From NCBI RefSeq assembly GCF_017348835.2, contig NZ_CP071375.1: a stretch of 64,000 bases of DNA. The stretch is one strand, 5' to 3'. This document shows, piece after piece, positions 42,123 to 56,586 of this stretch. The notes under the pieces were generated by a model. It worked only from the letters and a program-made list of their open reading frames with translations. It was not told the origin of the DNA and did not search any database. Origin of the DNA: Escherichia coli. Its GTDB lineage: Bacteria; Pseudomonadota; Gammaproteobacteria; Enterobacterales; Enterobacteriaceae. Position numbers and translations under genes: made by a program. The number at the start of each line of letters is the position of its first letter. Positions within the stretch are counted from its first letter, which is position 1.

Positions 42123-42156
42123 CTGTATAAAAATCCTATACTGTACGTATCGACAG
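42123..42156. promoter_or_regulatory. LexA (SOS) operator(s) of ydjM
   Basis: Perfect CTGT-N8-ACAG box CTGTACGTATCGACAG at 42141-42156, preceded by a second CTGT half-site region. Confidence 0.6.
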
Positions 42157-42172
42157 TTTAGTGAGTTTTATC

Positions 42173-42763
42173 ATGACGGCGGAAGGTCACCTTCTCTTTT
42201 CTATTGCTTGTGCGGTATTTGCCAAAAATGCCGAGCTGACGCCCGTGCTGGCACAGGGTGACTGGTGGCATATTGTCCCTTCCGCAATCCTGACGTGTTT
42301 GTTACCGGACATCGATCACCCAAAGTCGTTTCTTGGGCAGCGATTAAAGTGGATATCAAAACCGATCGCCCGCGCTTTTGGGCATCGTGGTTTTACCCAC
42401 AGTCTGTTGGCGGTATTTGCGCTGCTGGCAACCTTTTACCTTAAGGTTCCTGAAAGCTGGTTCATTCCGGCTGATGCGCTACAAGGAATGGTGCTGGGTT
42501 ATTTAAGCCACATACTTGCCGACATGCTGACACCCGCCGGTGTTCCCCTGCTCTGGCCATGCCGCTGGCGTTTCCGCTTGCCTATCCTGGTTCCCCAAAA
42601 GGGTAACCAACTGGAACGTTTTATCTGCATGGCATTATTTGTCTGGTCGGTATGGATGCCCCATTCATTACCCGAGAACAGCGCTGTTCGTTGGTCATCG
42701 CAAATGATCAATACCTTGCAGATCCAGTTTCATCGGCTTATTAAGCATCAGGTTGAATACTAA
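42173..42763 (+). CDS. ydjM: SOS-inducible inner-membrane protein
   Basis: ORF track 42161..42763 (GTG); start taken at MTAEGHLLF. Confidence 0.85.
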   Translation: MTAEGHLLFSIACAVFAKNAELTPVLAQGDWWHIVPSAILTCLLPDIDHPKSFLGQRLKWISKPIARAFGHRGFTHSLLAVFALLATFYLKVPESWFIPADALQGMVLGYLSHILADMLTPAGVPLLWPCRWRFRLPILVPQKGNQLERFICMALFVWSVWMPHSLPENSAVRWSSQMINTLQIQFHRLIKHQVEY

Positions 42764-42895
42764 AAAGGCAAAAATCACCTTTCTGGAATAAGCAATTCCA
42801 TTTGAATATAAGAGCCAGCTCACAGTTCTGTTAATCTTGCGCCAACACTATGGCTGCTACGCAGTGATAGAAATAATAAGATCAGGAGAACGGGG

Positions 42896-44287
42896 ATGAA
42901 CTTTCCATTAATTGCGAACATCGTGGTGTTCGTTGTACTGCTGTTTGCGCTGGCTCAGACCCGCCATAAACAGTGGAGTCTGGCGAAAAAAGTGCTGGTG
43001 GGTCTGGTGATGGGTGTGGTTTTTGGCCTTGCCCTGCATACCATTTATGGTTCTGACAGCCAGGTACTTAAAGATTCTGTACAGTGGTTTAACATTGTTG
43101 GTAACGGCTATGTTCAACTGCTGCAAATGATCGTTATGCCGTTAGTCTTCGCCTCTATTCTGAGCGCGGTTGCCCGTCTGCATAACGCATCTCAGTTAGG
43201 CAAAATCAGTTTTCTGACCATCGGTACGCTTTTGTTTACCACGCTGATTGCGGCGCTGGTCGGTGTGCTGGTCACCAACCTGTTTGGTTTGACGGCTGAA
43301 GGTCTGGTTCAGGGTGGTGCAGAAACTGCACGTCTGAACGCCATCGAAAGTAACTATGTTGGTAAAGTCTCTGACCTGAGCGTTCCGCAGCTGGTCCTGT
43401 CCTTTATCCCGAAAAACCCGTTTGCCGATCTGACCGGAGCCAATCCGACGTCAATTATCAGCGTGGTAATTTTTGCCGCATTCCTCGGTGTAGCTGCGCT
43501 GAAACTGCTGAAGGATGATGCGCCGAAAGGTGAACGCGTCTTAACCGCTATCGATACCCTGCAAAGCTGGGTGATGAAACTGGTTCGCCTGGTCATGCAG
43601 TTGACCCCTTACGGCGTTCTGGCACTAATGACCAAAGTGGTTGCAGGTTCTAACCTGCAAGACATCATCAAACTGGGAAGTTTCGTTGTCGCGTCCTACC
43701 TCGGTCTGCTGATTATGTTTGCAGTGCATGGCATTCTGCTGGGCATTAATGGCGTGAGTCCGCTGAAGTACTTCCGTAAGGTATGGCCTGTGCTGACGTT
43801 TGCCTTTACCAGCCGTTCCAGTGCTGCGTCTATCCCACTGAATGTGGAAGCACAAACGCGTCGTCTGGGCGTTCCTGAATCCATCGCCAGTTTCGCCGCC
43901 TCTTTCGGTGCGACCATTGGTCAGAACGGCTGCGCCGGTTTGTATCCGGCAATGCTGGCGGTGATGGTTGCGCCTACGGTTGGCATTAACCCGCTGGACC
44001 CGATGTGGATTGCGACGCTGGTCGGTATTGTTACCGTTAGCTCCGCAGGCGTTGCCGGTGTCGGTGGTGGTGCAACTTTCGCCGCACTGATTGTGCTGCC
44101 TGCGATGGGCCTGCCAGTAACCCTGGTGGCGCTGTTAATCTCCGTTGAACCGCTTATAGACATGGGCCGTACGGCGCTAAACGTTAGTGGCTCGATGACA
44201 GCTGGCACGCTGACCAGCCAGTGGCTGAAGCAAACCGATAAAGCCATTCTGGATAGCGAAGACGACGCCGAACTGGCACACCGTTAA
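42896..44287 (+). CDS. tcyP: L-cystine transporter, sodium:dicarboxylate symporter family
   Basis: 463-aa membrane ORF. Confidence 0.9.
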
Positions 44288-44290
44288 TTC

Positions 44291-45094
44291 TTATGCTGGC
44301 AACGGCCCGTTTTGTATAGGGGCCGTTGCCTTACTTTTTAAATGTTCCATCGCGGCGATGCATACTGACTCATATTTAAACAGATCGTCAGCGAAAAAAA
44401 TGTCCAACTTATCAATACATTCCTGGCTCAATAAATGTGCCTGTAGCGAGAAGCTTAAAACCTCATACCCGAGACGTTTTCTAAGTGAAATATCTGAAAT
44501 ACTCATAATATCTTCAAGCACACCACTTCCCATTCCCGGAAGATTTAGTGGATTAAAAAGAAGATTGATATTAAGCATTGATATTATCGAAGGGAACTTC
44601 AGTAGATGCTCATTATTTTGAATCGCAGCAAAAATGCTCCCGGCAGGATGTATATAATTTTTTTCATAGTATATAGTCCTTAAATAATGAATAACCAACC
44701 TGTTTTTTATATTGATCAAATTGGTCATTTTTTCTGGGCGAAATACAGAAGTGACATCCATTCCAATAAAATCTTTATTTATACCTCTTATCCGAATTTC
44801 ACTACCATAAAGATTATTAATTATTACTTTATATTTAGCATTGTCCTGCAGATACGTATCAAAACTAAGTGCTGGCGCTCCTGGCTTTGAGGCATCAAAG
44901 TTAATGTTAGACATATAGGCAATCATATAATTAAAATTTGATTCTGCTATTTCATCGCAGTCACATTGACCCGTTGATATAAAGAAAGTGAGTGCTGTCA
45001 TAGTAGACTGCAGCCTTTCTTTAAAAGAGTCGAAAGCCAGGCTTTTAATATTTAAATCACCATAATTACTCTGTATTAAGTTTGTAGAAAACAT
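44291..45094 (-). CDS. ydjO: Uncharacterized AT-rich protein YdjO
   Basis: ORF track 44291..45106 (271 aa); probable start at the internal Met (MFSTNLIQ) preceded by SD-like AGGTGGGAG. Confidence 0.65.
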   Translation of the reverse strand: MFSTNLIQSNYGDLNIKSLAFDSFKERLQSTMTALTFFISTGQCDCDEIAESNFNYMIAYMSNINFDASKPGAPALSFDTYLQDNAKYKVIINNLYGSEIRIRGINKDFIGMDVTSVFRPEKMTNLINIKNRLVIHYLRTIYYEKNYIHPAGSIFAAIQNNEHLLKFPSIISMLNINLLFNPLNLPGMGSGVLEDIMSISDISLRKRLGYEVLSFSLQAHLLSQECIDKLDIFFADDLFKYESVCIAAMEHLKSKATAPIQNGPLPA

Positions 45095-45162
45095 CTCCCA
45101 CCTCATATTGAACCGCCCCGGAAATCCTGGAGACTAAACTCCCTGAGAAAGAGGTAAACAGG

Positions 45163-54989: not shown

Positions 54990-55328
54990 TTACTTCGCAG
55001 CCTGTGGATCAGTGTCGTATTCAGCACAGGTCTGATAACCGGAGTTGATGACATGTCCGGTATCATCTAACGCGACAAAGTAGGTTTCTGCTTTACCATC
55101 ACGTTGACCCAGGATGTAGGTCTGGCAAGTACCACGAGCATGGATCATGCTCACTTCAGACGAAGGTTTACCCGCAATTTGTGCAACCTGCGCCCGGCTC
55201 ATGCCTTTTTTGACGTCTTTCACCACAGGCTGTACAAACTGGTCTTTGGTACGATCATAAGCCGTACAACCCGCCAGCATGGTTAATACCGCCGCTGCAC
55301 TCAGAATTCCTGCCATATTCTTGTTCAT
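54990..55328 (-). CDS. osmE: Osmotically inducible lipoprotein E
   Basis: 112-aa ORF with lipobox LAGC. Confidence 0.9.
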
Positions 55329-55529
55329 ATTCCGTCCTCTTGTTTATCAGCGTGTTAGATAAGCCTGGAATACATTGGGCGCTTTTTCAAGCCCGTGAAC
55401 GAAACGGCTCCGCTTTCAGAGGATTCCTGTATGACGTTTTAACCACCATTCAGCCCGCTGTCGCTTGTCGTTTCAGTAGCAACGGGTTAGCTTTAAGGAA
55501 GTTTTGTCTTTTCTGTCTGGAGGGGTTCA

Positions 55530-56357
55530 ATGACATTGCAACAACAAATAATAAAGGCGCTGGGCGCAAAACCGCAGATTAATGCCGAAGAGGAAATTCG
55601 TCGTAGTGTCGATTTTCTGAAAAGCTACCTGCGAACTTATCCGTTCATTAAATCACTGGTGCTCGGGATCAGCGGCGGTCAGGACTCCACGCTTGCCGGT
55701 AAGCTGTGCCAGATGGCGATTAATGAGCTGCGCCAGGAAACCGGCAACGAATCACTGCAATTTATTGCCGTACGCCTGCCCTATGGTGTTCAGGCCGACG
55801 AACAAGATTGCCAGGATGCCATTGCCTTTATTCAACCGGATCGCGTATTAACCGTTAATATCAAGGGCGCGGTATTGGCTAGCGAGCAGGCATTGCGGGA
55901 AGCAGGCATTGAACTGAGCGATTTTGTCCGTGGCAATGAAAAAGCGCGTGAGCGGATGAAAGCACAATATAGCATTGCGGGTATGACCAGCGGTGTCGTG
56001 GTGGGCACCGATCATGCAGCAGAAGCCATTACCGGATTCTTCACTAAATATGGTGACGGCGGTACGGACATTAATCCGCTGTATCGTCTCAACAAACGTC
56101 AGGGTAAACAGTTACTGGCGGCATTAGGTTGCCCGGAACACCTTTATAAGAAAGCGCCAACGGCCGATCTGGAAGATGATCGCCCTTCTCTGCCAGATGA
56201 AGTGGCACTCGGCGTGACCTATGACAATATCGACGACTATCTGGAAGGGAAAAACGTACCTGAACAGGTCGCCAGAACAATAGAGAACTGGTATCTGAAA
56301 ACCGAACATAAACGCCGTCCGCCAATTACCGTTTTCGATGATTTCTGGAAAAAGTAA
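55530..56357 (+). CDS. nadE: NH3-dependent NAD+ synthetase
   Basis: 275-aa ORF with PP-loop SGGQDS. Confidence 0.95.
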
Positions 56358-56402
56358 TAATTTGCACCTATTGGATTGTGCGAAAAAGAGTAATTTGTTC
56401 AC

Positions 56403-56501
56403 GCCAGATGCGGCGTGAACGCCTTATTCGACCTACAAAACTATGCAAATTCAATACATTGCAGGAGTCGAATAGGCCTGACAGGCGTAGCACGTCAGAC
56501 G
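56403..56501. repeat. REP/BIME-like inverted palindromic unit pair
   Basis: GCCAGATGCGGCGTGAACGCCTTATTCGACCTAC and an inverted partner GTCGAATAGGCCTGACAGGCGTAGCACGTCAGACGG in the nadE-cho gap. Confidence 0.4.
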
Positions 56502-56554
56502 GTGTAACCTTTGTCATCGACCCGCCTCTTTTTTAATCGCTTCCCGCCTGTTAT

Positions 56555-56571
56555 ACTGGATAGATAACCAG
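56555..56571. promoter_or_regulatory. Putative LexA box of cho
   Basis: ACTGGATAGATAACCAG, a CTGG-N8-CCAG variant of the SOS box, about 20 bp upstream of the cho start. Confidence 0.45.
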
Positions 56572-56586
56572 CACTCGGAGTCAACA

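Follow-up and report, generated by a model that had tools for sequence, protein, structure and literature searches.

The elements directly upstream of ydjM and cho in a 64-kb stretch of Escherichia coli DNA (64,000 nucleotides; hereafter called the “window”) are, with high confidence, the LexA operators (SOS boxes) of these genes, both of which belong to the E. coli SOS regulon. Both operators are already known, and for both genes control by LexA is textbook knowledge. The significance of the assignment goes little beyond correct annotation, and consists in the fact that genuine SOS operators are recognisable from the raw sequence alone. What is new here is a rare C-to-T change at position 1 of the cho box, which improves both the match to LexA and a −10-like hexamer.

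The boxes upstream of ydjM and cho

The sequences, scores, positions and conservation described below come from our own analysis. The window is collinear with positions 2761049-2825048 of E. coli PE164 (NZ_CP114128.1), with seven mismatches and no indels, and the PE164 annotation therefore transfers directly. Family searches placed the YdjM protein in Pfam PF04307 YdjM (E = 7e-36) and in the NCBIfam equivalog NF008651 (375 bits), and the Cho protein in the NCBIfam equivalog NF007833, “excinuclease Cho” (579 bits). Candidate sites were scored by the Lewis heterology index (HI), in which a lower value means a closer match to LexA, and were ranked over all positions of the window. The boxes and the two genes are as follows.

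42121..42140, strand not assigned: distal, weak LexA box of ydjM, CACTGTATAAAAATCCTATA (HI 14.72, rank 4)
42139..42158, strand not assigned: proximal, strong LexA box of ydjM, TACTGTACGTATCGACAGTT (HI 9.07, rank 2)
42173..42763, + strand: ydjM coding sequence, inner-membrane putative metal-dependent hydrolase, ATG start at 42173 (transferred annotation)
56554..56573, strand not assigned: LexA box of cho, TACTGGATAGATAACCAGCA (HI 7.22, rank 1)
56587..57474, + strand: cho (formerly ydjQ) coding sequence, UvrC-like excinuclease Cho, GTG start at 56587 (transferred annotation)

The DNA upstream of ydjM reads CACTGTATAAAAATCCTA-TA-CTGTACGTATCGACAGTT. A sequence-only reading of the window had described a perfect CTGT-N8-ACAG box with an adjacent second half-site upstream of ydjM (42123..42156), and both can be read directly from the DNA: the core, CTGTACGTATCGACAG, occupies 42141-42156 inside the proximal 20-mer, and the half-site CTGTAT starts at 42123. 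The same reading had placed a CTGG-N8-CCAG variant before cho at 56555..56571. The element exists, but the start was given one base too early; the core, CTGGATAGATAACCAG, lies at 56556-56571. The 3′ end of the ydjM proximal box is 14 nucleotides (nt) upstream of the ATG codon, and that of the cho box is 13 nt upstream of the GTG codon.

As an SOS box, we took a 20-base-pair (bp) palindromic match to TACTG(TA)5CAGTA with an HI below approximately 15, a cut-off quoted in PMC11002266. The HI matrix was recovered by linear regression from the K-12 20-mers and HI values in Table S1 of PMC12527982, where the same 20-mer TACTGTACGTATCGACAGTT has an HI of 9.0678. The recovered matrix is an exact additive fit (maximum residual 5e-5). 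It shows symmetry, and counts over 38 half-sites account for its penalties. The Lewis matrix reportedly dates from 1994, before the ydjM and cho sites were discovered, and the scoring of these sites would therefore not be circular.

Among the approximately 64,000 positions of the window, the cho box ranks first and the ydjM proximal box second, and the next best site has an HI of only 14.4. Shuffling the window 300 times with dinucleotides preserved gave an expectation of 0.017 sites per window at an HI of 9.1 or less, as compared to the two observed, and no shuffle contained two such sites. The matrix thus bears out these two boxes of the sequence-only reading as the top two sites of the window, and leaves the distal element of ydjM borderline. 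Overall, HI scoring parts genuine SOS operators cleanly from the background in the 64-kb window.

Could the two matches be chance AT-rich palindromes in intergenic DNA, with no regulatory role? The bare CTGT-N8-ACAG pattern, found once against an expectation of 0.67 per window, is not significant and would fit this explanation, and the bare CTG-N10-CAG pattern, with 22 occurrences against 12.2 expected, is at most weakly above chance. Because these counts lie at the chance level or weakly above it, we dropped them as evidence and used the full-site HI instead. The full-site scores contradict a chance origin, as do the positions of both sites, each 13–14 nt upstream of a start codon, their conservation across genera and the published lexA-dependent expression of both genes. 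The chance explanation is effectively refuted.

Two further sites in the window were set aside as being at the chance level. The third-best site (58932-58951, GACTGGTGATAAATAAAGCA, HI 14.4), which lacks the CAG trinucleotide, lies between spy and astE, roughly 235 nt upstream of the former, and the other is at 58202-58221 (HI 15.07).

The conservation of the ydjM box was analysed in the 80 loci that a genome scan with YdjM returned; they represent more than 20 genera of enterobacteria. The proximal box is present in all 80 species, with HI values from 6.2 to 12.1, and lies 14 nt from the ATG codon in 65 of them. Its TACTG and ACAG are invariant, and the inner positions vary. Within E. coli, the 1-kb stretch around the ydjM site was matched in 5,423 of the 5,426 complete genomes, and the 61-nt segment around the boxes is identical in 3606 of 5419. 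For cho, we compared six loci, from Salmonella, Citrobacter, Leclercia, Kosakonia, Yokenella and Enterobacter, which make seven genera together with E. coli. The box is found at the same place in all six (HI 6.7–11.5), where CTG and CAG are kept and the spacer drifts. The cho intergenic region is otherwise unalignable across the genera, and four features are kept in the same order in all six: a CTCTTTTTT block, TA(T/C)ACTG, the CTG-N10-CAG box, and GGAG followed by GTG.

The LexA dependence and the damage induction of the two genes are taken from the literature. In a review (PMC6590174) that cites Fernandez de Henestrosa 2000 and Courcelle 2001 for them, ydjM and cho both appear in the “Known SOS box” list. 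In RNA sequencing data (PMC11228462), ydjM shows 8.6-fold and cho 5.1-fold lexA-dependent expression. Ciprofloxacin induces both genes, with log2 expression rising to 2.6 for ydjM and to 1.6 for cho (PMC11002266), and nalidixic acid induces ydjM and ydjQ in Salmonella (PMC8072944). The boxes themselves are the published ones. Both 20-mers match the sequences published for K-12 ydjM (b1728), attributed in reviews to Fernandez de Henestrosa et al. 2000, with no difference of substance, and are the same element. The K-12 cho (ydjQ, b1741) box, CACTGGATAGATAACCAGCA, has the same position, the same CTGG-N8-CCAG core and the same downstream gene as the box in the window, which differs from it (HI 9.54) by T for C at 56554 and C for T at 56574. 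The claim that both elements fit known LexA regulation is supported by these reports.

The tandem arrangement at ydjM

The distal element of ydjM combines an intact left half-site, CTGTAT, with a degenerate right half, in which CCTA replaces ACAG. The distal and proximal 20-mers have the terminal TA in common and are offset by 18 bp. The HI of the distal element is borderline against the cut-off of approximately 15, and 1.5 sites with an HI of 14.8 or less are expected per window; taken alone, the element is within chance. Given the shared TA, however, only about 2e-4 of the window positions would reach its score, and its abutting position is therefore unlikely to be accidental. The element occurs at the exact −18 offset, with an HI of 17 or less, in 77 of the 80 species, where its right half is always CCTATA and never CAG.

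Published data also describe this second site. Tandem LexA sites have been experimentally reported for E. coli ydjM (PMC4951493), and PMC4576408 includes CACTGTATAAAAATCCTATA, identical to the distal 20-mer, among its LexA sites, at −52 of ydjM (b1728). In Salmonella, ydjM has two boxes, one 14 nt and the other 32 nt from the ATG codon, and ydjQ has one (PMC8072944).

Similar pairs are found at other LexA-regulated genes. The recN gene has three boxes (HI 5.16, 9.38 and 11.5), the second offset by 22 bp from the first and the third by 18 bp from the second. Boxes 2 (HI 9.38) and 3 (HI 11.5, with a broken trinucleotide) share the terminal TA at an 18-bp offset, as the ydjM pair does, and lie directly upstream of the start codon, as at ydjM. 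Unlike ydjM, recN carries an additional strong box, 22 bp upstream of this pair, and its weak box is promoter-proximal rather than distal. The colicin E1 gene (cea) on ColE1 likewise has a strong (HI 7.55) and a weak (HI 11.64) box that overlap at their ends, but the offset is 15 bp, so that the 20-mers overlap by 5 bp, as compared to 18 bp at ydjM, and its weak box matches LexA far more closely than the ydjM distal element does. Colicin genes in general use such an overlapping pair of a strong and a weak box for cooperative LexA binding, and are cited as a case in which this has been demonstrated (PMC4951493). The autoregulatory boxes of lexA also stand side by side in an SOS gene promoter, but both are good (HI 6.4 and 8.3) and they do not overlap, with a 21-bp offset. 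For their joined sequence we used what we take to be the lexA tandem-box sequence; both of its 20-mers are in the K-12 table.

Several observations weigh against the assignment of the elements as LexA operators, or against parts of it. The cho gene, although lexA-dependent, is not induced by azidothymidine (0.77-fold; PMC11228462). A strict sigma-70 scan of the ydjM and cho loci found no canonical promoter, and the overlap between operator and promoter is therefore deduced from geometry at both. The distal element is weak, and its median HI of 16.1 in the 80 species exceeds the customary cut-off of 15. In addition, hardly any position of the stretch 42099-42158 varies in these species, and thus conservation supports a function but does not single out LexA for the distal element.

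The last two observations lead to an alternative for this element, namely that only the proximal box works in ydjM regulation, and that the distal half-site is kept as part of the core promoter or as a site for another factor, and adds no repression. As part of the core promoter, it could be a spacer, or could provide an alternative −10 hexamer, either TATAAA at 42126-42131 or C/TACTGT at 42121-42126. Such a role would suit the poor scores, the right half that is never CAG, the chance frequency of sites of this quality, and the near invariance of a 60-nt block (42099-42158) that includes sequence outside any LexA box. Against it stand the CTGTAT half-site kept at the exact −18 position in about 77 of the 80 species, the precedent at recN, where a stronger and a weaker box are likewise set 18 bp apart, and the tandem sites cited for ydjM as experimentally reported. 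The lexA-dependence of ydjM is also the highest among the genes whose best box has an HI of 8.2–9.4 (data from PMC11228462), which is consistent with extra repression from a second site, although it is no proof of it. We consider the alternative unlikely, and a promoter role and a LexA role of the distal element are in any case not mutually exclusive. We retain the distal element as a probable weak second LexA site, and the tight repression of ydjM that the sequence-only reading had suggested from the tandem arrangement is plausible.

Candidate core promoters and a proposed mode of repression

The features that bear on the promoters and on translation starts are the following; the two hexamers are assigned from their position and likeness to the −10 element.

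42012..42043, + strand: intrinsic terminator after hxpB, a 14-pair stem followed by a T-tract (hxpB ends at 42010)
42137..42142, + strand: TATACT, best −10-like hexamer for ydjM (candidate), fused to the left half of the strong box
56552..56557, + strand: TATACT, −10-like hexamer for cho (candidate), overlapping the box
56577..56580, + strand: GGAG, Shine-Dalgarno sequence of cho, 6 nt before the GTG codon, conserved in all seven aligned genera

The terminator after hxpB confines the ydjM promoter to 42044-42172 (approximately 130 nt). Within this region, the TATACT hexamer at 42137-42142 is invariant in all 80 species. The manual choice of the −35 and −10 elements is ambiguous: either TATACT is used with a weak −35 element, TTCCGT, or GTTACA is followed after 17 bp by C/TACTGT. 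At cho, the hexamer is conserved as TATACT or TACACT across the seven genera, with TACACT in most E. coli.

Upstream of the ydjM boxes, the block 42086-42120 (TTACACCGTCACC.CTTCCG) is nearly invariant in the 80 enterobacterial species, and could be the −35 region or the site of a second regulator. For its near-invariant part 42099-42120, the idea of a second regulator's site is speculative, and we hold it with low confidence. In this upstream region, other genera carry TTGTGACAAAGAG in place of the E. coli sequence TTTAAGAGAAAGAG, which forms a GTGAC...GTCAC inverted repeat.

How might LexA repress the two genes? From the closeness of the boxes to the start codons and the TATACT hexamers fused to them, we infer that bound LexA covers the core promoter or sits just downstream of it. 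In undamaged cells, a LexA dimer would occupy each box. Since the box lies 13–14 nt before the start codon and over the only good −10-like hexamer, TATACT, the LexA dimer on it should keep RNA polymerase from binding or block it. The gap to the start codon would leave space for a ribosome-binding site only. At ydjM, where the centres of the two sites are 18 bp apart, cooperative contacts most likely hold another LexA dimer on the weak site. With this second dimer, LexA would cover approximately 38 bp of core promoter sequence and repress ydjM more strongly. Upon DNA damage, RecA filaments on single-stranded DNA trigger the self-cleavage of LexA, the boxes are vacated, and ydjM and cho are transcribed.

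The start of cho is called differently in some genomes. Cho is called from an upstream ATG codon in Salmonella (locus L083, 601-1509, 302 residues) and in Enterobacter hormaechei (locus L088, 601-1506, 301 residues), and the LexA box consequently falls within the called cho coding sequence in both. A Salmonella study gives the distance of the ydjQ box as 0 (PMC8072944). The alignment reveals a conserved GGAG-N6-GTG start, the one that E. coli uses, which suggests that these longer calls are probably wrong.

The cho allele and the rest of the window

The combination of two bases that distinguishes the cho region of the window from that of K-12 is rare in E. coli. The window has T at 56554 and C at 56574, and all six other E. 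coli sampled by 321-nt and 61-nt searches have C and T, respectively. Position 56554 is both position 1 of the cho box and position 3 of the −10-like hexamer, and position 56574 is one base beyond the box. The exact 61-mer of the window occurs in only one of the 5,426 complete genomes, that of PE164. Haplotypes with a single change were also found, T at 56554 in SLK172 and C at 56574 in NT1N31 and SFE8. We considered a small inversion of the cho box as the origin of two single-nucleotide differences 20 bp apart, and rejected it because the reverse complement fails to reproduce the sequence of the window.

The C-to-T change at 56554 lowers the HI from 9.54 to 7.22 and converts TACACT to TATACT, the hexamer that is also found at cho in Salmonella and Citrobacter freundii. 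Tentatively, and with more doubt than confidence, we suggest that the T allele may alter the regulation of cho. If so, the T at 56554 could strengthen both the promoter and the repressor site, and thereby give the Cho nuclease of this lineage a larger range between the SOS-off and SOS-on states than in typical E. coli.

Elsewhere in the window, the PE164 annotation includes an IS3-family transposase with a programmed frameshift (45163-46376) between ydjO and cedA. The type III secretion effector gene espL1 (35054-36952) lies between thrS and yniD, and its presence suggests that the strain is pathogenic or rich in accessory genes. In the same annotation, ydiN (4470-5736) and fadK (14993-16638) are frameshifted pseudogenes, and one of the seven differences between the window and PE164, at 15563, lies within fadK.

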